A stretch of 64,000 nt of DNA from Escherichia phage UE-S1: the sequence record ON568341.1, one strand, 5' to 3'. The position numbers were made by a program, and so were the translations under genes. The notes beneath the pieces are model-generated. The model did not search any database. It saw only the letters and a program-made list of their open reading frames with translations, and was not told where the DNA came from. This document shows positions 826 through 11,188 of this stretch, in pieces (position 1 is the stretch's first letter; each line of letters starts with the position of its first letter).

Positions 826-1806
826 ATGGCTAAAAAAATTAATGAAGCACAAGTTAAAATCGATATCGCAGGTTTAGAATCTGATGATTTGGAAACACTA
901 TCCCGTATGTTAGCTCTTGCTGGTCAAGCTGAACGTCAAGACCCTGTGGTTGCTGCTCCAGTATCATCTATTGGGTCTATGGCTCCATCTCTACCACCTA
1001 TTGCACCACTAGATCTTGATTCTATTAGTGCCGAAAAAGAAATTGGTGGAATTGAAACTTCAGTTGAAGATCCATTGGCAGCAGCAGTTGATGGTCTTTC
1101 CGCTGATGATGGTGATTTTGGTGCTGACACCGATGAAGTTGGTATTGATGCTGAATTTTCAGAACCAGGCGTAGAAGGTGAAGAAGATTTTTCTCTTGAC
1201 CTTAGTGGTCAACCTCAACTAGAATCAGTTGAAGAAGACGACGATGAGGAAGAAGAAATCATCGAAGAAGAATTCGATTTTAGTCGTATGCTATCTCTTG
1301 CTGGTATTAACGAAGAAGAAGACGACGATTTTTCCGTAGAGGGTAATACTGCTACTGATAGAGAAATGAAAGATACTCAATTTCTACCAGATCTAAGTAT
1401 CTCTGAAGATGAAGAACCATCTGACAGTACTGATTATGGTCCATATAATACTGAAGCTGATGCAGTTCGTGATGGTCAACTTAAGACTAATGGTGTTGAA
1501 GGTGATCATTTTGTTGTAATTGCGAAAGGGAACCAGTTTTATTGGAGACGTGTTGTAGATGAAGATGTTGACAATCGTCCAGAACCAGAGTATTATGACA
1601 ATGAAGGAAACGAAAATCGCGTTCATAAATTTGAACCAAAATCTCCAGGTACTGCATTAGGAGATAACCCACTCAATGTTAATGAAAGTGAAGAAGATGA
1701 TTCACCAGAAGGTAACACTGACTTGGAAGATGACTCTGATGAAGAAGTAGAAGATATTTTCGAAAGTCTCCAAGAAAAATATAAAAAATTTTTAGGAGAC
1801 AAATAA
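826..1806 (+). CDS. Highly acidic (Asp/Glu-rich) protein of unknown function
   Basis: 326-aa ORF with AAAAGGA-like ribosome-binding site; long runs such as EEDDDEEEEIIEEEFDF; internal repeat SRMLALAG / SRMLSLAG. Confidence 0.6.
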   Translation: MAKKINEAQVKIDIAGLESDDLETLSRMLALAGQAERQDPVVAAPVSSIGSMAPSLPPIAPLDLDSISAEKEIGGIETSVEDPLAAAVDGLSADDGDFGADTDEVGIDAEFSEPGVEGEEDFSLDLSGQPQLESVEEDDDEEEEIIEEEFDFSRMLSLAGINEEEDDDFSVEGNTATDREMKDTQFLPDLSISEDEEPSDSTDYGPYNTEADAVRDGQLKTNGVEGDHFVVIAKGNQFYWRRVVDEDVDNRPEPEYYDNEGNENRVHKFEPKSPGTALGDNPLNVNESEEDDSPEGNTDLEDDSDEEVEDIFESLQEKYKKFLGDK

Positions 1807-1807
1807 T

Positions 1808-2203
1808 ATGCAATATAATTATCGTGAACTAGTTGAAGCGTTGGACGAAATCACCGGACGAGATGAAGAAGGAAGTTTTTCCGTTGAAGTTGATTCCGAT
1901 GTTGTAGCAATTGATGTTCTTAAAGATATTACCAAATGTCTCGTTGATATTGTTGATAAGATTAAATCTGGTGAAGATCAAAAAGAAATCGTTGATAAAC
2001 TACAAAAAGCATGTGACATTTTGTCTGACATTCGATATAATGATGAAAGTACTGAAGTCGATGATGATGAAGTGATGGAAGCTATTGCTGGATGTTTTGG
2101 AACTGAAGGTATGGGTCCAACGATTGACAAAGATGGCGTACAGCACTATAATGAACCAGATGCACCATCTTATGCTGCACGCCAAGGTTATGTTGGAGAC
2201 TAA
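1808..2203 (+). CDS. Small acidic protein of unknown function
   Basis: 131-aa ORF starting 2 nt after the previous stop; AGGAGA ribosome-binding site; Asp/Glu-rich. Confidence 0.55.
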   Translation: MQYNYRELVEALDEITGRDEEGSFSVEVDSDVVAIDVLKDITKCLVDIVDKIKSGEDQKEIVDKLQKACDILSDIRYNDESTEVDDDEVMEAIAGCFGTEGMGPTIDKDGVQHYNEPDAPSYAARQGYVGD

Positions 2204-2208
2204 AATAT

Positions 2209-2589
2209 ATGTTTCCTGTACCATCACATAACAGTACTGAATATCAAAATGATGTACTTTCCAAAGTTAGGGAAGTACATGAATCAGATTCAGAAATAAC
2301 AGACCGTATGCTTCTGATGTCAATTTTTGAAAATTTCAGAACTGGCGGTGGTTTACGTCTTAGCAAGTTTGGGTATGGAATTTGTAAAGAAAATAATCTT
2401 TATGAATTTACAAAAATCCCCTTGCAAAGAGAATTTAAAAGTTCTATAATGTTTACATCACTTGACAGAATATGTACTTCACCTTATTATGTTGAAGGTC
2501 AGTACATATATCTGACAGATGCAATGATAATAACTGAATTAACATTGTGTTGTGATGATTTTAAACAATTATTTTCTATTCATATGTAA
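2209..2589 (+). CDS. Hypothetical protein
   Basis: 126-aa ORF tightly packed after the previous gene; GGAGA ribosome-binding site. Confidence 0.5.
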   Translation: MFPVPSHNSTEYQNDVLSKVREVHESDSEITDRMLLMSIFENFRTGGGLRLSKFGYGICKENNLYEFTKIPLQREFKSSIMFTSLDRICTSPYYVEGQYIYLTDAMIITELTLCCDDFKQLFSIHM

Positions 2590-2601
2590 GAAAAATAAAT
2601 G

Positions 2602-2629
2602 TTGACAAGATAGAATGATGTGATATAAT
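2602..2629 (+). promoter_or_regulatory. Sigma70-type promoter: TTGACA, 16-nt spacer, TGaTATAAT (extended -10)
   Basis: Exact -35 TTGACA at 2602-2607 and -10 TATAAT at 2624-2629 inside the motif GATGTGATATAAT. Confidence 0.6.
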
Positions 2630-2694
2630 AAGCATCAGACATAAAGTTTTCAAGCGGCACAAGATGTGAGTTTGAAAAAAATAAAAAAAAGTGA

Positions 2695-2722
2695 TTGACA
2701 AGTTGAAACGATGTGATATAAT
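2695..2722 (+). promoter_or_regulatory. Second tandem sigma70-type promoter: TTGACA, 16-nt spacer, TGaTATAAT
   Basis: TTGACA at 2695-2700, TATAAT at 2717-2722; same GATGTGATATAAT motif about 93 bp downstream of the first copy. Confidence 0.6.
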
Positions 2723-2892
2723 GTTCACATCAAGGCAGCAAAGAGATTTACCTTTTTAAACACACGGATGATTCATGAAGTAATAAAGGAACTGATAAGT
2801 TAAATTATTTTAACACAGTTCCTTTACTTTTGCCCACGGATTGGCTATAATAGAAACTTAAACGATTTTATCCAACAAAAGGAAATATATAC

Positions 2893-4218
2893 ATGACTAC
2901 TCAAAACGATATCCTGAATGTTAAACTGACTCCAAAGAAAGCTAAAGAAGCAATGGCACTAGCTGACATGATTCAAGATAGCCTGATGATTTGGGGTAGC
3001 CCAGGTATCGGTAAGTCTGCAATTGCTCGTCAATACGCTGATGAAAATTACCCTCTGCGTAAAGATAACGAAGCTAAAATCGAGTTCATGAAACAACAAA
3101 TTGAAGCTGACCCTGAAAATGCTGATCAGCTACGCCGTGAACTGGCTGCATTTGAAGCTAAACTAATCGACCAAGATACTAACTTCATCGATTTCCGTTT
3201 GTCTCAAATTGAACCAAGTGACCTCCGTGGTATCCCTGTACCAGAGAAGCTTTTCCGTAAAACTGACGGTTCTCTTCTCAAAGAATCTGAGCTTGCTGAA
3301 GCAAAAGATTATGTTGCTGAAACTGCTGTAGTTTGGGCTGCACCTAAAGTGCTGAAATTGCCAGAAGATTGGAAAGGGGTTATTCTGTTTGACGAAATTA
3401 ACTCTGCAATGCCAATTGTTCAGGCAGCGTCTTATCAGCTAATCCTCGACCGTTGTGTTGGTGAGATGAAGCTACCTAAAACTGCACTGATTCTTGCAGC
3501 AGGTAACCGTGAAACTGATGGCGGTGTAACGTTCTCACTGGCTACACCACTACGTGACCGTATGACACACATTGAGATGATTCCTTATCATCAAGATTGG
3601 ATTAACGATTATGCAATTGGTAAACGTTTGAACCCAGCAACTGTTGCGTTCATCAACAACACAGGTTCTAAGTACTTTAACACTCTTAGCCCACAAGATC
3701 CTTCTCACAGTGGTGGTACTTCTCCACGTTCATGGGAAGCTGTAGCACGCTACGAAGATCTCAAGAAAACTAAGACAATTGATAAAGAAGTGTTCCGTGC
3801 AATGATTGCTGGGCGTGTAGGTGAAGGTGTAGCAACTGAATACATTGAGTACGTTGATAACGTTGCTAAACTACCAGATACTATGTCTATTCTGTCTGGT
3901 GAAATCAAAGATATCGATGCAACTCTTGATATTTCTGCGAATTATTTTATTACTTTGAACTTGGTTTATAAAATTATCGACCTGTTCAATGAGAAGCAAG
4001 AACAACGTCTACCAGTGGAAGAATGGGGTAAACTGTGCAACAACTTCATTACCTTCCTTGACCATAACTTCTCTGCAACTCAAGCAGAACTGGCAGTTCT
4101 GGCAATTCGCACCATTACGCTTCATAAGGTTGCGATTTCCATTAAAGATGTACCAGCGTTTAAAGATTTTATCGCTAAGTACTCTGAACTAGTTCGTAAA
4201 GCACGCTCTCTTGGGTAA
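2893..4218 (+). CDS. MoxR-like (AAA_5 / CobS-like) AAA+ ATPase
   Basis: Walker A GSPGIGKS, Walker B ILFDEIN, later AAGNRE motif; AAGGAAA ribosome-binding site. Confidence 0.8.
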   Translation: MTTQNDILNVKLTPKKAKEAMALADMIQDSLMIWGSPGIGKSAIARQYADENYPLRKDNEAKIEFMKQQIEADPENADQLRRELAAFEAKLIDQDTNFIDFRLSQIEPSDLRGIPVPEKLFRKTDGSLLKESELAEAKDYVAETAVVWAAPKVLKLPEDWKGVILFDEINSAMPIVQAASYQLILDRCVGEMKLPKTALILAAGNRETDGGVTFSLATPLRDRMTHIEMIPYHQDWINDYAIGKRLNPATVAFINNTGSKYFNTLSPQDPSHSGGTSPRSWEAVARYEDLKKTKTIDKEVFRAMIAGRVGEGVATEYIEYVDNVAKLPDTMSILSGEIKDIDATLDISANYFITLNLVYKIIDLFNEKQEQRLPVEEWGKLCNNFITFLDHNFSATQAELAVLAIRTITLHKVAISIKDVPAFKDFIAKYSELVRKARSLG

Positions 4219-4238
4219 TTAACAAAGAGTGGTTGACA

Positions 4239-4268
4239 AGAAGGATACGATATAGTATCCTTCTTTTA
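4239..4268 (+). terminator. Intergenic stem-loop with U-tract between the ATPase and VWA genes (partial terminator or attenuator)
   Basis: AGAAGGATAC-gatata-GTATCCTTCT followed by TTTAT; a TTGACA lies just 5' but the -10 spacing is poor. Confidence 0.45.
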
Positions 4269-4292
4269 TCTTAACTAAACGAGGAAATATAC

Positions 4293-5717
4293 ATGTCGGA
4301 TAACAAATCTTCATCTAAGTTTAATGAAGTATCACCAGAACTCCAAAAGGAATGTCAAGATCGATTGGTTCTGGCTCGTACATCTTTGATGTTAACTGCT
4401 CCGTTCTTTGGTGTTTTGGCTTCGCGTTTACGTCCTGTTCCTAATAATACATGGTGTCGTACACTAGCAGTTGATGGGAAACATTTATTCTACAATGTAG
4501 AATTTGTTATGGGCATCCAAGATCAATCTAAAAAGAAAGAGTACGAAGATGCTATTCGTGAAAAACACCCAGAGGTTACTGATGAACAATTAAAAGAAAT
4601 GACAGAAGGTCTGACAGATGAAAACCTCATTGCAGTGATTTGTCATGAAATTTTGCATTGTGCTTACGACCACTTCCTTCGTCGTGGAATGCGTGATCCA
4701 CAACGATACAATCGTGCAGCAGATTATGCAATTAACCAAATTATTGTCCGTGAGAAAATTGGAAAAATCCAAAGCTCATGGTTATATGATAAAAAATATG
4801 AAGGAATGACCGCTGAAGAGATTTATATTCTTCTGGAAGATGAAGAACAAAAAGAAGAAGGTGAAGGGAACGGTCAACCACAAAGCGGTGGTGGTGAAGG
4901 TGAAGGTAAAAATCGCGGAACTTTTGGTGATATCAAAGATGGTAAGGGTAAACCAAAAGGTACAACAATTGACCAACATGACGTTCCACAAGAAGGCCAA
5001 GACGGTGGTTCAAGTGAACAGCAAAAACGCGATTATATGGATGATTTCAAAACAGCAATGATGAATGCTGCACGTGCTGGTGGCACACCAGCAGAAATCG
5101 CTCGTATGATTAATAACTTCAAAGAACCAAAGATTGATTGGCGTTCTAAACTTCAACGCACTCTTCGTAGCTGGTTGAAGTCTGATGCAACTTATCAAAA
5201 TCCAGCACGTCGTTCATGGGGTGCAGGTTTTGGTTCTAATGGTTCATTTTATGGTAATCCAATTTATCCAGGGATGAAACCAGATGATGATATTGATATT
5301 GCAATTGCACTCGATGCTTCTGGTTCTATTTCCGAAGACATGCTTCGTGATTTTATTAGTGAAGTTCTTGGTATCACTAAACAATTTAAACAGTTTAAAA
5401 TTCGTATCATGACATTTGATACTGAAGTTTATACTGTAAAAGATTACAAAACTGGTGAAGAACGTAAGATTCTGGAATATCCAGTAAAAGGTGGTGGTGG
5501 TACTGACTTTGAAGCAGTATGGGTTCATATGAAGAATGACAACTATAAGCCTAAACAGCTTGTAATGTTTACTGATGGTGAACCGTGGCAGTCATGGGGT
5601 GATCCTAACTACTGTAAAACACTGTTTGTGATTCACAGTAACCCAAATAAAGTTGCACCATTTGGTGAAACAGTACACTACGAGTATGAAGCAGACAAAA
5701 AACGTCAACGTAGTTAA
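4293..5717 (+). CDS. Protein with N-terminal HExxH metallopeptidase-like region and C-terminal von Willebrand factor A domain
   Basis: HEILH(C)AYDH motif; Gly/Glu-rich linker; MIDAS-like DASGS in IAIALDASGSISEDM; VMFTDGEPW. Confidence 0.75.
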   Translation: MSDNKSSSKFNEVSPELQKECQDRLVLARTSLMLTAPFFGVLASRLRPVPNNTWCRTLAVDGKHLFYNVEFVMGIQDQSKKKEYEDAIREKHPEVTDEQLKEMTEGLTDENLIAVICHEILHCAYDHFLRRGMRDPQRYNRAADYAINQIIVREKIGKIQSSWLYDKKYEGMTAEEIYILLEDEEQKEEGEGNGQPQSGGGEGEGKNRGTFGDIKDGKGKPKGTTIDQHDVPQEGQDGGSSEQQKRDYMDDFKTAMMNAARAGGTPAEIARMINNFKEPKIDWRSKLQRTLRSWLKSDATYQNPARRSWGAGFGSNGSFYGNPIYPGMKPDDDIDIAIALDASGSISEDMLRDFISEVLGITKQFKQFKIRIMTFDTEVYTVKDYKTGEERKILEYPVKGGGGTDFEAVWVHMKNDNYKPKQLVMFTDGEPWQSWGDPNYCKTLFVIHSNPNKVAPFGETVHYEYEADKKRQRS

Positions 5718-5729
5718 GTACTAAATAAT

Positions 5730-5759
5730 GAGAACGGAAATTTTCCGTTCTCTTCTTTT
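5730..5759 (+). terminator. Rho-independent terminator
   Basis: GAGAACGG-aaatttt-CCGTTCTC hairpin followed by a T-tract. Confidence 0.6.
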
Positions 5760-5765
5760 ATAAGT

Positions 5766-5793
5766 GAGACAACTCACAAAAATATGATATAAT
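5766..5793 (+). promoter_or_regulatory. Sigma70-like promoter: GAGACA, 16-nt spacer, TGaTATAAT
   Basis: GTGAGACAACT -35 element and extended -10 TGATATAAT upstream of the 5829-8883 gene block. Confidence 0.45.
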
Positions 5794-5828
5794 AGTTATT
5801 GTACCAATATACATGGAGAGTATTAAAA

Positions 5829-6074
5829 ATGGAACAAGAAAATAATCAAATTCAACTAACCCTTCTAGACCTAATCAATGCAGCAAAAATCATGGAAGCT
5901 GCTGTTGCCCGAAATACATTTAAAGTTGAAGAACTCGTGGATGTTTCCCCAGTTGTCGCCAAATTTGTTTCTTTTGCAAATGAAGCACTTGAAGATATTA
6001 AAGCTCAAGAAGACGCTGCTAAAGAAGAATCTGAATCACAAGATATTAAAGCTCAAGAAGATAAAGGAGAATAA
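5829..6074 (+). CDS. Small hypothetical protein (start moved to the ATG with a GGAGAG ribosome-binding site)
   Basis: ATG at 5829 preceded by GGAGAG; the track ORF starts at 5799 without a good ribosome-binding site. Confidence 0.5.
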   Translation: MEQENNQIQLTLLDLINAAKIMEAAVARNTFKVEELVDVSPVVAKFVSFANEALEDIKAQEDAAKEESESQDIKAQEDKGE

Positions 6075-6076
6075 TT

Positions 6077-6733
6077 ATGGCAGCTATTCGTCATGTTGGT
6101 GTAATGCGTAATACAGGTTCACGTGTTTTTGTTGTTTGGCGTTCACTACCAGATGATCCTGACCACTGCCTTATTGTTTATCGTGATTCCTTACCAGAAG
6201 CATATGTTCATGCAGTAACTGATATTGTGATGGGTCATGGTCAATCAAACATTGATTTGTGGGAAGTAATGCATAAAATTGGTTACCTGGATGGTCGTAA
6301 AATGCTAGATGTACTACACAATATGCAACATTTACGTCGAGTTCGCACTTGTGATATTGATATGCATACTGGTGGTAATAATAAAATTTCTCTTGATGTT
6401 CTAAACAAAGCATTAGATGAAAATCAAGCGAAAGTACAAGAAGATGGTAAAGTAAAAGACTTTAACCCATTTAACCCACAAGAAGTAGACACAAAAGTTG
6501 AAGAAGCAACTATTGTTGAACAACTTATTTCTGACGCTAAAAAATATGAAAAACTTGCTCAAGAACACTATGAACGTGCATACAATTTAGAGCCAAGTTT
6601 GCGTCCACAAACACAAGTTGTTGAACAACCAAAAGATAGTAAAACAATTTATCTAGAAATTCCTGAAGGTATTTCACAGACTAAAGCTATTGAGAAAGTA
6701 AAACAACTATTCGCAGAACGCAAAGCAAAATAA
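6077..6733 (+). CDS. Hypothetical protein
   Basis: 218-aa ORF with AAAGGAGA ribosome-binding site, immediately after the previous stop; no motif recognised. Confidence 0.55.
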   Translation: MAAIRHVGVMRNTGSRVFVVWRSLPDDPDHCLIVYRDSLPEAYVHAVTDIVMGHGQSNIDLWEVMHKIGYLDGRKMLDVLHNMQHLRRVRTCDIDMHTGGNNKISLDVLNKALDENQAKVQEDGKVKDFNPFNPQEVDTKVEEATIVEQLISDAKKYEKLAQEHYERAYNLEPSLRPQTQVVEQPKDSKTIYLEIPEGISQTKAIEKVKQLFAERKAK

Positions 6734-6736
6734 AAT

Positions 6737-7330
6737 ATGAAAAAGAATGAATTAGATGAAGCAATTAAAGGTTTATCTAATGTATGTTTTAGTGGCGGGG
6801 CAGCAGGTGCTGACCGCCTTTTTTCAATCTATGCAAAAAATAATGGATTTGAAGTTATTAATTTTTCATTCAAAGGTCATGTGCATAGTGTAGATGAAAG
6901 CACCATATTAGAAATACCATCCAATATTTTATCTGATATTTCTATATTAAATCAACTAAACATTGCATGTTATTCGTTGCAGCGAAAAGTACCAAAGCCT
7001 GGTTCATATGTTTACAACTTACTTGCAAGGAATAGTTATCAGATACTTAATACAGAAAGAATATATTGTATTGCAAATATTACATCGCCAACTAAGGTAA
7101 GTGGTGGTACTGCATGGGCAGTACAGATGTACATTGATTCAGTTGAAAATCCAGAAATTTATTGTTATGATATGAATTCACGTTCTGTGTTTTACTTCGA
7201 TACAGAACTGAAAGAGTTCAAACAATCATTCGTGGTTCCACCACCACATGGTAACTGGACTGGTATTGGTTCACGCAATGCAACAGAAAAACATATGGAA
7301 CATTTTATTACATTTTTCAAGGAAGAATAA
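6737..7330 (+). CDS. Rossmann-like protein with GGAxGxD motif (SLOG / LOG-DprA-like nucleotide-binding fold); function unknown
   Basis: N-terminal VCFSGGAAGADRLF resembles the glycine-rich loop of SLOG-family proteins; stop overlaps the thyA start (TAATG). Confidence 0.45.
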   Translation: MKKNELDEAIKGLSNVCFSGGAAGADRLFSIYAKNNGFEVINFSFKGHVHSVDESTILEIPSNILSDISILNQLNIACYSLQRKVPKPGSYVYNLLARNSYQILNTERIYCIANITSPTKVSGGTAWAVQMYIDSVENPEIYCYDMNSRSVFYFDTELKEFKQSFVVPPPHGNWTGIGSRNATEKHMEHFITFFKEE

Positions 7331-8883
7331 TGAAGCAACTACAAGAACTATATCAAAAAATTCTAGATGAAGGCGTAGAAAGCGTTGACCGTACTGGCGT
7401 TGGCACAATCAAACTTATCGGTCAACAAATGCGTTTCGACCTTAAAGATGGTTTCCCAGCAGTGACGACAAAACGTCTAGCTTGGAAATCAATGACTTCA
7501 GAATTACTATGGTTTATTGAAGGCTCCCATGATGAACGTCGCCTTTGTGAAATTTTACATGGAACTCGTGATACAGAAAAGAAAACTATTTGGACAGATA
7601 ATTGTTTAGATCGTGCAAAAAACGATCCCAATCGATTTAATGGGGAAACGGTCGGTAATATGTATGGCATGAATTGGCGTTATCAACCATCTGAACCACA
7701 TAGCTATCAATATATTGAGAGGAAAACATATATTGATGATTATGTTGAAAATCATATTTGTCCAGAAATTACTGATACATTTAATGGAGTTAAAATTCAC
7801 AAATCTGCCAAATGTGGGGATTATGAAGTTATTGGTAAACATCATAATAATATAGTAATTCGTTTCATTAACACCGGTTCATATAAAATTGTACCAAGAA
7901 CTGCGAAAAATATTAAAGATTTTTTCCAACCATCAATTGAAGGGATTGGATATTTGGGTGGTGTAATTCCTGATACATTAACTGCAAAAAAATTATATCA
8001 AATTTGGAAAGATATGATTATTAGAGTGTATAACCCTAGAAAAAATCATTTATCATATGAAAATATAACTGTATGCAAACGTTGGCATAATTTTATGAAT
8101 TTTTACAATGATGCTTTTTCATTATGGGGATTTCAAGAATTTGTTGACAGTGGGTATTCTCATCAACTTGATAAAGATTATTACGGTTCAAACATTTATT
8201 CACCTGATACTTGTATTTTTATATCAGCATCATTAAATAAAACATTAAATGGTGGTGGACATGGGTTTAAAATTTATCTTTATAAAGGTAATGTATTTTA
8301 TTCTAGAACCGATTTACAAGAATCACGTGGTTTAACAAGAAAGGCCAATTTACCAGATGATGTAACAATATTAGAAGATAATGAAACACACGTAGTAAGA
8401 CCAAAAATATACATTGATCAACTACAGCGTTGTATTGATTTAATAAAGAACGATCCAGATTCAAGACGAATTGTTATTACATCATGGAATTCTAGAGATA
8501 TTGAAAATGCAGCATTAGGTATGTGTCACCCATTAGTACAATGGTTTGTTATTAATGGTAAGTTGTCATGTTCATTTTATATGCGTAGTTCTGATAGCTT
8601 CTTAGGCTTACCATTCAACATAGCATCATATGCACTACTTACCCACATGATAGCACAAATATGTTCTCTAGAGGTTGGAGAATTGATTTATACAGGTGGT
8701 GATTGTCACATTTATAAAAACCACGTTGAACAAGTAAAAGAACAACTACAGCGAAAACCACGTGAATTACCTGAATTGTGGCTTGATCCTACCATTACTA
8801 ATATTGAAGATTTCACAATGGATTCTTTCAAATTAGTAAATTACAACCCAATGCCAACAATTAAAGCACCGATGGCTGTATAA
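7330..8883 (+). CDS. thyA: Thymidylate synthase (ThyA family) with a ~228-aa in-frame insertion
   Basis: N-terminal TS motifs (DRTGVGT, FPAVTTKR) and C-terminal TS core (NDPDSRRIVITSWN, catalytic CHPLVQWFV, LGLPFNIASYALL, GGDCHIY); 517 aa rather than ~265-285. Confidence 0.85.
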   Translation: MKQLQELYQKILDEGVESVDRTGVGTIKLIGQQMRFDLKDGFPAVTTKRLAWKSMTSELLWFIEGSHDERRLCEILHGTRDTEKKTIWTDNCLDRAKNDPNRFNGETVGNMYGMNWRYQPSEPHSYQYIERKTYIDDYVENHICPEITDTFNGVKIHKSAKCGDYEVIGKHHNNIVIRFINTGSYKIVPRTAKNIKDFFQPSIEGIGYLGGVIPDTLTAKKLYQIWKDMIIRVYNPRKNHLSYENITVCKRWHNFMNFYNDAFSLWGFQEFVDSGYSHQLDKDYYGSNIYSPDTCIFISASLNKTLNGGGHGFKIYLYKGNVFYSRTDLQESRGLTRKANLPDDVTILEDNETHVVRPKIYIDQLQRCIDLIKNDPDSRRIVITSWNSRDIENAALGMCHPLVQWFVINGKLSCSFYMRSSDSFLGLPFNIASYALLTHMIAQICSLEVGELIYTGGDCHIYKNHVEQVKEQLQRKPRELPELWLDPTITNIEDFTMDSFKLVNYNPMPTIKAPMAV

Positions 8884-8886
8884 ACG

Positions 8887-8917
8887 AAAAGGGAGAACAT
8901 CAGTTCTCCCTTTTTTA
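8887..8917. terminator. Bidirectional rho-independent terminator between convergent genes
   Basis: A-tract, GGGAGAAC-atcag-TTCTCCC hairpin, T-tract. Confidence 0.7.
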
Positions 8918-11188
8918 TTATCTAATTGTTACCAACGTTCTTCCGTCGAAACGTACATCAGGAGTTGAAGGTATACTGAACACTACGTTAGTGCCGTTAA
9001 ACGTCACGCTATCGACCTCAACACGAGTATAGACACCTGGACTAACCTGTTCCTGTATCTCTGCTGTGACGATGTTTGAGGCTGTTACAGTAAGGGTGTA
9101 GTAGTTACCACTTAATACCCAAGATGAAATGGTAAATGCATCGGTTCTTACTGAACCTGAACCAATTGGAACCCATTGACCTTGAACTTTTTGCATTGAA
9201 GTACGCTCGGTATTGGAGTATGCAATCATACCATCAACACCAACAGAGTTATCAATAGTAGCTAGTACTGGTAATTGAATACCATATCTATTGAAACGTG
9301 TTCTAATAATTCCATTATCATAGATACTTACATCAGCATAATTCCCCATTGAAAGTTTCAAATCTGAATCAACTAATTGCATTGTACTTTGGTTAGTAGG
9401 GCTTTCTAAAGTAATTATTCCATTTGGTAATAAGCTTAAGTTTTTAAATTTATTCGAATTACCATTAAAATTTGTATTAGCGTTGAAAGTACTAGTTCCA
9501 TTAACTACTATTGTGTTTTCTGCGGCATCACCTAATATTGTATTTCGTTGAACAATCAAGTTACCATTAGCAGTAATATTAGTCGCTGTAGTATCACCAT
9601 TTAATTTTGTATTAGCGTTGAAAGTACTAGTAGCATTAACTACCAATGTGTTTGTTGCGTTGTCACCTAATATAGTATCACTTTGAACATTCAAATTACC
9701 ACTAGCAGTAATATTAGTCGCTGTGGTATCGCCATTTAATTTACTTGTACCATCAACTACGATATTACTATTAAATTTCGTATTAGATTTAAAAGTACTA
9801 GTAGCATTAACTACCAATGTGTTTGCTGCGGTGTCACCTAATATTGTATTGCTTTGAACATTCAAATTACCACTAGCAGTAATATTACTAGCTGAAGTAT
9901 CACCAATTAATCTACTTGTACCATCAACTACGATATTACCATGAAAATCGCTTTCACCGTTTTTAAATTCCACTTGTACCGAATACATAGAACTAAATGA
10001 AATTATATTACTACTTGCACTTATACCAACATTAGTATTAGTTGGGTTATCGAAGTGTAATATTGGAGTTAATGCTGGTGTTGTTGTTGTTTGATAGAGC
10101 GTTAATGATGAGTTGTTAATTCGCACACGTTCTGTTCCGGCAGTACTAAATCCAATAGCATCATCAGCAGGATGAAAAATACCAGTATTAGTATCAGACC
10201 ATTTTTCAGGATCATTACCAGGATTACTTGTTGGGTCGAATGGTTTATTATTAAATGCTATCGCTGGTGCGGAAGCACTCCCATATACAACACCAAAACG
10301 ACCAGACCCTATTGTACCATCATCATACATTGAATCGCCTGTTCTACGTAAACATTCAATTACAACATTATCTATGGAAGTTTGAACTGTACCAGCATTA
10401 GTTCTGAATTGACGATTATTTGCAATCATAATAGTGTTATCATATAACACAGAAGCTGCTGAAATACTTGTTCTTGATTGACGAAGGCGTATGTTTTTAT
10501 CTTCAGTAATAATAATCCAATCACCATCAGATAGTGCTGTTTGATTCATTGGCACACCGGAAGCAAACGGCTTAGTTAAATCATCATCAGTTGCTAAATT
10601 AACAAGTCCACTATGCCCAGTACTAGGGATGGAAGTTGAAATAATTCTTGCAAAAGCGTTTGTTACGAGCTTTGCACCAGATATATTTGGATTAGAATCA
10701 ACATAATATAAAATTTCAACCCAATTCCCCTGTCCAGTTGGGTTAGTTGGAGTAAATGTTACTGGGCTGGTTTTTGGTTTATTCGCTTCAAAATGTGCTT
10801 GGGCGGCATCCATAATACCACGCACAACATAATAATCACCACTAAGTGATGATGAGGGTGCAGGTAGTGGGCTTTGGGCTAACGGTGGGTCAATATCATC
10901 TGGAATCGGATTATATGTACCAACAAACTGTAAACCACTAGTTACTGAATCTGGTAATTGAGATGTAAGAAGTTTACCATTTGCATCTAAGTTAGCGAAA
11001 CGCCTGTATGCCATTGAACCATCTTCAAAATCCAGAACACCCTCGAACGATTTCCATGCTTTATTGTATCTAATCATCCCTGATCTTATTACATCAGCGG
11101 TTTCTTTTGATGGTGCTTTTGGTAATTCTAAAAAAGATTTACTATCAATAATTACACCACCATCACCTCTAATTCGATTTATACTCAT
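8918..11188 (-). CDS. Tail fibre protein, repeat-rich (distal fibre-like)
   Basis: 756 aa; several tandem ~45-aa repeats (NITASGNLNVQS-TILGD-A-NTLVVNATSTF); Thr/Asn/Ser/Gly-rich. Confidence 0.6.
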   Translation of the reverse strand: MSINRIRGDGGVIIDSKSFLELPKAPSKETADVIRSGMIRYNKAWKSFEGVLDFEDGSMAYRRFANLDANGKLLTSQLPDSVTSGLQFVGTYNPIPDDIDPPLAQSPLPAPSSSLSGDYYVVRGIMDAAQAHFEANKPKTSPVTFTPTNPTGQGNWVEILYYVDSNPNISGAKLVTNAFARIISTSIPSTGHSGLVNLATDDDLTKPFASGVPMNQTALSDGDWIIITEDKNIRLRQSRTSISAASVLYDNTIMIANNRQFRTNAGTVQTSIDNVVIECLRRTGDSMYDDGTIGSGRFGVVYGSASAPAIAFNNKPFDPTSNPGNDPEKWSDTNTGIFHPADDAIGFSTAGTERVRINNSSLTLYQTTTTPALTPILHFDNPTNTNVGISASSNIISFSSMYSVQVEFKNGESDFHGNIVVDGTSRLIGDTSASNITASGNLNVQSNTILGDTAANTLVVNATSTFKSNTKFNSNIVVDGTSKLNGDTTATNITASGNLNVQSDTILGDNATNTLVVNATSTFNANTKLNGDTTATNITANGNLIVQRNTILGDAAENTIVVNGTSTFNANTNFNGNSNKFKNLSLLPNGIITLESPTNQSTMQLVDSDLKLSMGNYADVSIYDNGIIRTRFNRYGIQLPVLATIDNSVGVDGMIAYSNTERTSMQKVQGQWVPIGSGSVRTDAFTISSWVLSGNYYTLTVTASNIVTAEIQEQVSPGVYTRVEVDSVTFNGTNVVFSIPSTPDVRFDGRTLVTIR

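Follow-up and report, generated by a model that had tools for sequence, protein, structure and literature searches.

The locus described here raises the question of why an enlarged thymidylate synthase gene (thyA) lies directly behind a gene for a SLOG-type nucleotide-binding protein, and what kind of pathway the two might serve. It is found in Escherichia phage UE-S1 (sequence record ON568341.1), of which a stretch of 64,000 nucleotides, hereafter the window, was analyzed. Four tightly packed genes (5829-8883), namely: g1, g2, the SLOG gene and thyA, are flanked by a promoter on one side and a terminator on the other, and thus appear to form one transcription unit. An earlier reading of the DNA, made from the sequence alone, had proposed that this arrangement points to a nucleotide-processing or DNA-modification pathway and not just to the synthesis of deoxythymidine monophosphate (dTMP). 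The explanation we favor, to which we give roughly an even chance of being right as a whole, is that the unit is a canonical dTMP-synthesis operon combined with an accessory nucleotide-binding or nucleotide-processing SLOG protein and a recombinant, insert-bearing allele of thyA. The window shares ~94% identity with the Asteriusvirus jumbo coliphages 121Q, PBECO4, phAPEC6, Sharanji and others, and a search of the phage collection gave no record covering at least 80% of it. The four-gene unit itself is already sequenced in dozens of public genomes, though unstudied.

In order to place the SLOG protein, we searched for its homologues; 107 proteins were returned, of which 57 were aligned. The alignment contains 15 invariant and 15 nearly invariant columns, which include SGGAxGAD (aa 19-26), R83, P86, LLxRNxxQ (aa 95-102), GGTAWAVQMxxD (aa 123-134) and GIGSR (aa 176-180). 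In the window protein these motifs read SGGAAGAD, LLARNxYQ, GGTAWAVQMxxD and a C-terminal GIGSR. Within the glycine loop, S19, G20, A22, G24 and D26 are invariant and G21 is nearly so; SGGAAGAD fits the GGAxGxD loop on which the sequence-only reading had based its SLOG-like assignment, and that assignment is borne out. The protein also has the hallmarks of the SLOG superfamily, namely: a three-layer alpha/beta Rossmannoid fold, a glycine loop after the first core strand and a second GG(T) motif. As a prediction from sequence, the SLOG fold is solid, with the YpsA/cpYpsA clade as the closest branch. The Pfam family YAcAr (PF10686, ‘YspA, cpYpsA-related SLOG family’) matches the window protein at 20.0 bits, below its gathering threshold of 28.2 (E 6e-4; model positions 21-60 of 66), which leaves the protein outside the family proper; 16 of the 57 aligned members match at E ≤0.01 (best 1.2e-4). 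Compared with cpYpsA/YAcAr proteins (PF12694/PF10686; structure 3imk), the window protein therefore differs in its sub-threshold score and partial coverage of the 66-position model, and in having an additional C-terminal half rich in beta-hairpins. Sequence searches of NCBIfam and the PDB with the protein found nothing. The best description of it is a cpYpsA/YAcAr-related SLOG protein; a literature search on the function of DUF2493/PF10686 found nothing experimental.

Two better known branches of the superfamily are less similar. Neither the window protein nor its family has a Pfam LOG match, and the protein is set apart from the LOG/PpnN nucleotide 5'-monophosphate N-glycosidases by having GGTAWAVQ in place of the PGGxGTxxE motif. 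Where LOG has its catalytic Glu, most members have Gln130 and a few have Glu, and thus LOG-type hydrolysis cannot be assumed. The gene is labelled ‘DprA-like’ or ‘DUF2493’ in public records, and PHROG 768 (‘DprA-like’) matches the protein at 6.6e-27. The Pfam DprA model (DNA_processg_A) gives weak matches in 2 of the 57 members and none for the window protein, which places it outside that family too. Like DprA and ShosA, the protein has a Rossmannoid SLOG core and a related SGxAxGxD loop. DprA, however, opens with a ‘GSR’ strand, whereas the GIGSR of our protein stands at the C-terminus, which fits the circular permutation named in the Pfam family. Furthermore, it is a single domain of 197 aa without the SAM or winged-helix (DML1-like) domains, it is acidic, and its structural similarity to DprA/ShosA is weaker than to cpYpsA. 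Isoelectric points across the family range from 5.2 to 9.7, so there is no consistent basic surface; the values are otherwise uninformative on DNA binding.

The evidence on function comes from gene neighbourhoods. We compared 79 viral-contig loci encoding SLOG relatives with the window proteins. All 18 loci with at least 48% SLOG identity (RaK2, GAP32, CBB and Eneladusvirus-type jumbo phages) keep the order moxR-VWA-g1-g2-SLOG-thyA, and many of them have ~300 extra bases, room for a small open reading frame (ORF), between g2 and the SLOG gene and between the SLOG gene and thyA. In the 61 distant loci (30-42% SLOG identity), thyA, g1 and g2 were not found within 5 kb. The SLOG-thyA adjacency is thus lineage-level synteny, and weak evidence when taken alone.

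The distant loci show a different and recurrent neighbour. Among the 55 that have an intact called SLOG ORF and were used for neighbour clustering, 37 encode a P-loop protein, a deoxynucleoside monophosphate (dNMP) kinase, within 5 kb and on the same strand. The kinase gene lies immediately upstream of the SLOG gene in 28 loci, its stop codon mostly overlapping or abutting the SLOG start, and within 0.2-3.2 kb in 9 more. These 28 pairs form 13 clusters at 70% SLOG identity and 5 at 50%. The kinase was identified by Pfam DNMK (39.8 and 55.3 bits, gathering threshold 27.1) and by PHROG 139 (1.4e-46). The pair often adjoins a tail-sheath gene; in Agrobacterium phage Atu_ph07, for example, genes for nicotinamide adenine dinucleotide (NAD) synthetase, dNMP kinase, SLOG protein and tail sheath follow in order. 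The two neighbourhoods, one with thyA and the other with the dNMP kinase, tie the SLOG family to enzymes acting on deoxynucleoside monophosphates, and this coupling is the main support for a role of the family in nucleotide metabolism. No dNMP kinase gene is found in the window itself.

Some relatives occur in other settings. In the N4-like Klebsiella phage Pylas, a SLOG domain with all the motifs lies in-frame within the 3819-aa virion RNA polymerase (~aa 989-1145; locus position 2501-2968), and in the crAss-like phage cr109_1 such a domain, again with all the motifs, lies in-frame within the 4328-aa gp53 (aa 4068-4230; locus position 2501-2989), where four in-frame TAG codons imply stop-codon recoding. 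The homologue of Caulobacter phage Cr30 comes after the gp47/gp46 recombination nuclease genes, and at one metagenomic locus the homologue is near the NAD-salvage genes for NAMPT and NMNAT/Nudix.

The enzyme at the end of the unit looks ordinary. ThyA scores 298 bits with Pfam PF00303 and, against a cutoff of 108, 300 bits with the NCBIfam equivalog TIGR03284. In an alignment with E. coli ThyA it keeps the Asn of LGLPFNIASYALL, the catalytic Cys (MCHPLVQW), the RSxD Arg (in RSSD) and the C-terminal KAPMAV. Since Asn and not Asp is retained in LGLPFNIASYALL, the protein does not resemble a deoxycytidine monophosphate (dCMP) hydroxymethylase, and the suggestion of a uracil substrate, which the sequence-only reading had drawn from the Asn in FNIASY, agrees with the equivalog match. 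We conclude that thyA is predicted to encode an ordinary thymidylate synthase that converts deoxyuridine monophosphate (dUMP) to dTMP.

This bears directly on the idea of a hypermodification pathway, in which a modified pyrimidine would come from ThyA, or from a hydroxymethylase-like variant of it, and undergo further processing by the SLOG protein and the unknown proteins. There is a resemblance to MilA/MilB-type pairs, which combine a hydroxymethylase of the thymidylate synthase family with a nucleotide N-glycosidase, in that a gene of the ThyA family adjoins one for a Rossmannoid nucleotide-processing protein; sequence alone leaves some room for dUMP hydroxymethylase activity. The strong equivalog score and the retained Cys, Asn and KAPMAV speak against such a pathway, however, as do the composition of the unit and the coexistence of thyA alleles with and without the insert in near-identical phages. 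No enzyme fold was found in g1 or g2, and profile searches found no kinase, transferase, glycosylase or glycosyltransferase beside ThyA in the unit. Asteriusvirus fEgEco12 carries the same pair of SLOG (annotated DUF2493) and thyA genes, and digestion of its DNA by 10 restriction enzymes matched the in-silico prediction (PMC13070987); in RaK2, methylation is the only DNA modification reported (PMC3622015). With g1 and g2 lacking an enzyme fold and the DNA of a relative that bears the SLOG-thyA pair being cut normally, the DNA-modification pathway is unsupported, and we consider hypermodification very improbable. Of the earlier proposal, the nucleotide-metabolism half thus gains support from the recurrent coupling to the dNMP kinase, while the DNA-modification half is unsupported, given the absence of partner enzymes, the lineage-confined SLOG-thyA adjacency and the normal restriction of fEgEco12 DNA.

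In the explanation we favor, the SLOG protein would bind, and possibly cleave N-glycosidically, a free ligand of the nucleoside-5'-phosphate type. It would act as an accessory of the phage's deoxynucleotide supply, in pool regulation or sanitation, and not on DNA; this role is suggested by the SLOG gene overlapping thyA by 1 nt in the window and by its orthologues overlapping the dNMP kinase stop codon in many phages. The phage would then make ordinary thymine DNA with no hypermodification. A number of points weigh against this explanation. Its weak link is the function of the SLOG protein, which is drawn from gene neighbourhood and fold alone, and the Gln at the position of the LOG catalytic Glu (Q130) in most members makes hydrolysis uncertain. 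The adjacency to thyA is confined to one lineage, with ~300 bp of other sequence intervening in several genera, and the pairing with the dNMP kinase may reflect just a handful of independent lineages; moreover, the Asteriusvirus dNMP kinase is encoded elsewhere and not beside the SLOG gene (PMC7247149). The restriction evidence comes from a relative, fEgEco12, and is blind to subtle or partial modifications. Finally, the SLOG domains inside the virion-injected giant proteins of N4-like and crAss-like phages, and the two loci where the gene is near NAD-salvage or NAD-synthetase genes, fit a role in counter-defence better.

In such a role, the SLOG protein would sense, sequester or degrade NAD+/ADP-ribose-derived or other nucleotide immune second messengers, and its place beside thyA would be inherited synteny. 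Aravind and colleagues have reported YAcAr SLOG domains in jumbo phages and have predicted that viral SLOG proteins of the YpsA clade sense or degrade NAD+/ADP-ribose-derived immune signals (PMC7824862; PMC9503650). The Pylas virion RNA polymerase and cr109_1 gp53 are delivered at the very start of infection, which fits the predicted immune-signal role, and the homologues near NAMPT and NMNAT/Nudix and beside the Atu_ph07 NAD synthetase, as well as the lack of SLOG-thyA linkage outside one lineage, point the same way. On the other hand, the protein in the window has no Macro, NADAR, Nudix or TIR partner, either by fusion or as a neighbour, and no ligand of the SLOG family is known from experiment. 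Across divergent loci the dNMP kinase gene is the commonest neighbour, its stop codon in most cases overlapping the SLOG start, and an NAD-related role leaves this unexplained. We keep counter-defence as a strong rival to the dNMP-pool explanation, with a real chance of being correct that is nevertheless well short of even. The protein could also be a single-stranded DNA-binding recombination mediator, as the PHROG and GenBank annotations have it; the PHROG 768 label and the Cr30 gene order agree with this, and fusion to virion RNA polymerases acting on DNA is compatible with it. Set against these are the circularly permuted motif order, the missing SAM and winged-helix domains, the weak Pfam DprA matches in only two members, the lower structural similarity to DprA, and the acidity of the window protein in a family without a consistent basic surface, and we regard a DprA-like function as quite unlikely.

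Compatible with the other explanations is a virion module, in which ThyA and g2, and possibly also the SLOG protein, would be part of the particle, inside it or on its surface, and enter the next host with it. The operon lies within the structural-gene region, convergent with tail-fibre and structural genes, and mass spectrometry of phAPEC6 virions lists ThyA (gp259c, 3 peptides), the g2 homologue (gp262c, 1 peptide) and the MoxR ATPase (gp265c, 6 peptides) (PMC7247149); N4-like and crAss-like phages, moreover, have virion proteins that include the SLOG domain. The few peptides could, however, stem from carry-over of abundant soluble proteins; the account of the CBB virion proteins makes no mention of thyA (CBB_223); and the sigma-70-type promoter suggests expression by the host RNA polymerase, presumably early. 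A virion module is therefore an unlikely account, and virion association of the operon products is a lead, not a result. It should be noted that the phAPEC6 annotation (MK817115; locus position 2537-3130) misses the intact 197-aa SLOG ORF and lists the spurious gp261c and gp260c in its place. Because the ORF is unannotated, the phAPEC6 SLOG protein was undetectable in the virion mass spectrometry.

We now turn to the insertion in ThyA. The protein has 517 aa in both the window and Klebsiella phage KP13-7 (87% aa identity), 309 aa in 121Q and 546 aa in ph0011, where it is divergent. Its Pfam match is split in two by an insertion of ~240 aa, the second stretch covering aa 361-517. The insertion is placed between the YGxxWR motif and the IDQL helix, at about E. 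coli residues 100-108, in a loop that 121Q already shows in elaborated form. Three PHROG families labelled HNH endonuclease (2081, 953 and 374) are matched in part by the insertion, and a tblastn search with it returned >1,300 phage records, most of the listed matches being small proteins, many annotated as HNH endonuclease; a word-indexed homologue search gave just 5 proteins. Two homologues that we examined occupy typical homing-endonuclease positions, namely: g049 of Yersinia phage fPS-53 (178 aa), whose gene directly precedes that for the large terminase, and gp144 of Bacillus phage 015DV004, adjoining nrdB. The free-standing homologues share the whole insert module, including a NUMOD-like tail. 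With Pfam, neither the insert nor the free-standing homologues show a nuclease domain, of the HNH type or any other, and the insert is not identified as an HNH homing endonuclease; the only NUMOD-like match, in one insert homologue, is sub-threshold (21.5 vs. 27 bits). No paralogues of the insert are present in the window. The insertion is thus a homing-endonuclease-like module unrelated to substrate chemistry, and the ‘atypical’ ThyA of the sequence-only reading gives no sign of special chemistry.

Two other kinds of element were considered and rejected. An intein would be expected neither from the Pfam searches, in which ThyA and the insert have no Hint/intein match, nor from the junctions, WRYQP/SEPH and VVRPK/IYIDQ, which lack HN+C/S/T. 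As for a group I intron, the 517-codon ORF is continuous, the insert is under purifying selection as protein, and Rfam gives nothing at gathering score over the whole window and nothing relevant at E≤1 over 5600-9000.

Similar modules are found in other thyA genes. Escherichia phage JEP8 (Krischvirus, T4-like; locus position 2129-3361) has a 410-aa ThyA with a shorter module in the same loop, and a shorter version of the same module is found in the same loop of a metagenomic ThyA fragment (P0178). Insert-bearing thyA alleles are thus spread across unrelated phage groups. In Klebsiella phage RCIP0023 (locus position 1054-3011), a 247-aa ‘intron-associated endonuclease 1’ divides thyA into two ORFs; Rfam found no group I intron at gathering score in RCIP0023, KP13-7 or ph0011. 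Evidently, thyA is a hot spot for homing-type elements. A familiar case is the td gene of phage T4, which has a group I intron with I-TevI. Like td, the window thyA is a thymidylate synthase gene of a phage that a homing-endonuclease-related element has invaded, and flanking exon sequence has passed between phages in both cases; the window gene differs from td in having neither intron nor intein, the element being translated within ThyA and showing no recognisable nuclease motif.

The history of the insert can be followed in its flanks. In 60-nt blocks, the tract 7560-8680 has ~72-97% identity to KP13-7, mostly 85-97% up to 8560, and just ~43-75% to 121Q in the alignable parts. The remainder of the operon has 83-100% identity to 121Q per block (mostly at least 92%) and 40-81% to KP13-7. 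Between the window and KP13-7, the insert has a synonymous divergence (dS) of 0.54 and a ratio of nonsynonymous to synonymous divergence (dN/dS) of 0.16, whereas dS is 1.7 and 1.1 in the two flanking parts of thyA, with dN/dS of 0.05-0.06. The dN/dS and the lower dS indicate that the insert is a selected, translated domain that moved between phage genera at a later date than the rest of the gene. Together, insert and tract look like the footprint expected of a homing-type element with co-conversion of its flanks, ordinary recombination being an alternative. Insert-less alleles are the majority among Asteriusvirus genomes, and thus the insert is dispensable for the operon. In our proposal, the thyA allele is a recombinant in which a 239-aa module of the homing-endonuclease family, placed in a surface loop between YGxxWR and the IDQL helix and translated with the enzyme, would stem from an Alcyoneusvirus-like (Klebsiella phage) allele and would have brought ~130-270 bp of thyA sequence along at either end. 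Compared with genes 565-568 of 121Q and their equivalents in PBECO4, phAPEC6, Sharanji, fEgEco12 and RaK2, the window has the same promoter, gene order and terminator; unlike 121Q, its thyA has had the centre replaced by an insert-bearing allele closest to that of KP13-7.

The features of the unit are listed in Table 1.

Table 1. Positions of the genes, signals and recombinant segments of the SLOG-thyA unit in the window.
Feature	Coordinates	Strand	Description
Terminator hairpin	5730..5752	bidirectional	10-bp stem, T tract; ends the upstream VWA/DUF2201 gene and forms the 5' boundary
Sigma-70-type promoter, extended -10 (predicted)	5764..5793 (also given as 5766-5793)	+	-35-like GTGAGACA, then TGATATAAT
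Leader hairpin ATACATGGAGAGTAT	5809..5823	+	g1 Shine-Dalgarno sequence in loop; conserved; one occurrence in the window
g1	5829..6074	+	81 aa, acidic, PHROG 13789
g2	6077..6733	+	218 aa, lineage-restricted
SLOG gene	6737..7330	+	197 aa, circularly permuted YpsA-type (YAcAr/cpYpsA-related) SLOG fold
thyA	7330..8883	+	517 aa, canonical thymidylate synthase with in-frame insertion
ThyA insertion	7690..8406	+	in-frame, 239 aa (ThyA aa 121-359)
Recombinant (mosaic) tract	7560..8680	+	from sliding identity vs. KP13-7 and 121Q
Strong intrinsic terminator	8886..8915	.	13-bp stem and T tract; between convergent thyA and structural gene

The genes are separated by spacers of 2 nt (g1/g2) and 3 nt (g2/SLOG), and the SLOG gene and thyA overlap by 1 nt (TAATG). 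Promoter-like matches are not enriched over the region (19 found vs. 17.5 expected from shuffles). Nevertheless, the promoter is judged to be real because it is placed between the terminator hairpin and the Shine-Dalgarno sequence and is conserved in 13 RaK2-like relatives from several genera, in which TGnTATAAT is invariant and a -35-like TTGGGACA or TTGAAAC lies 17 bp upstream. Across the same 13 relatives, the stem of the upstream terminator is kept through compensatory changes. In silico, the -35 and -10 elements are at the correct spacing, a terminator follows downstream, and no internal terminator is of comparable strength, the two internal terminator-like matches being weak (at 6805 on the + strand, stem 5 bp; 7231-7248 on the - strand, stem 6 bp). 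Transcription of the unit is thus predicted to start from a host sigma-70-type promoter and to stop at an intrinsic terminator, and the picture of a single promoter-driven, terminator-bounded operon of four packed genes drawn in the sequence-only reading is confirmed, every feature it named being in place. The g1 start is taken as the ATG at 5829, with GGAG ahead of it, as annotated in 121Q; a TTG at 5799 was also listed by the ORF finder and is unlikely to be the start since it is located at the predicted transcription start. The leader hairpin ATACATGGAGAGTAT has a 5-bp stem, and its form ATACATGGAG(A/T)GTAT is kept in all 13 RaK2-like relatives inspected; it may serve as a translational operator.

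The first two genes of the operon encode small, lineage-specific proteins without enzyme folds. g1 has an isoelectric point of 4.3 and PHROG 13789 as its sole match, while g2 has an SH3/KOW/Tudor-like beta-barrel N-domain (aa 1-118) followed by C-terminal helices. Some SLOG homologues have a C-terminal extension of ~100 aa; a relation of this extension to the g2 N-domain was considered and dropped (hhalign probability 0.2%, no Pfam match). PDB sequence searches with g2, the SLOG protein and the insert gave chance-level matches or none. In Escherichia phage WPEC5 (locus position 3362-4015), GenBank labels the g2 homologue ‘thymidylate synthase’, a label with no sequence or structural support.

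Directly upstream of the operon (2893-5717), the window encodes a MoxR-type AAA ATPase (441 aa) and a DUF2201 metallopeptidase/VWA protein (474 aa), and these two genes are syntenic with the operon in all RaK2-like relatives. The VWA protein is called ‘N4 gp25-like’ in phAPEC6, and its PHROG label, HNH endonuclease, is a mislabel. On the other side, the minus strand (8918-11188) encodes a 756-aa structural protein with tandem repeats of ~35 aa (NITASGNLNVQSxTILGDxAxNTLVVNATSTF...). Its homologues have 654 aa in 121Q and 763 aa in ph0011, which suggests a variable number of repeats.

What the locus means for phage biology depends on how far the proposed role of the SLOG protein extends. In the most far-reaching version, it would be a previously unrecognised component of phage deoxynucleotide metabolism, acting on (deoxy)nucleoside monophosphates as a specific N-glycosidase or as a sanitiser, or else supporting ThyA and the dNMP kinase as an allosteric or scaffolding partner, and it is conserved from jumbo myoviruses through to the giant proteins that N4-like and crAss-like phages deliver with the virion; we hold this tentatively and think it rather unlikely in full. 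Should the SLOG protein indeed work with ThyA or the dNMP kinase on nucleoside monophosphates, it would be a new and widespread enzyme or regulator in the well-studied synthesis of phage deoxynucleoside triphosphates, and would provide the first ligand class for the orphan cpYpsA/YAcAr branch of SLOG proteins, which is currently predicted to act on NAD/ADP-ribose signals only. The ThyA allele, for its part, is a clean natural case of a module of the homing-endonuclease family kept as an in-frame, selected domain in an essential enzyme, with neither intron nor intein involved in its exchange between jumbo phages of E. coli and Klebsiella.

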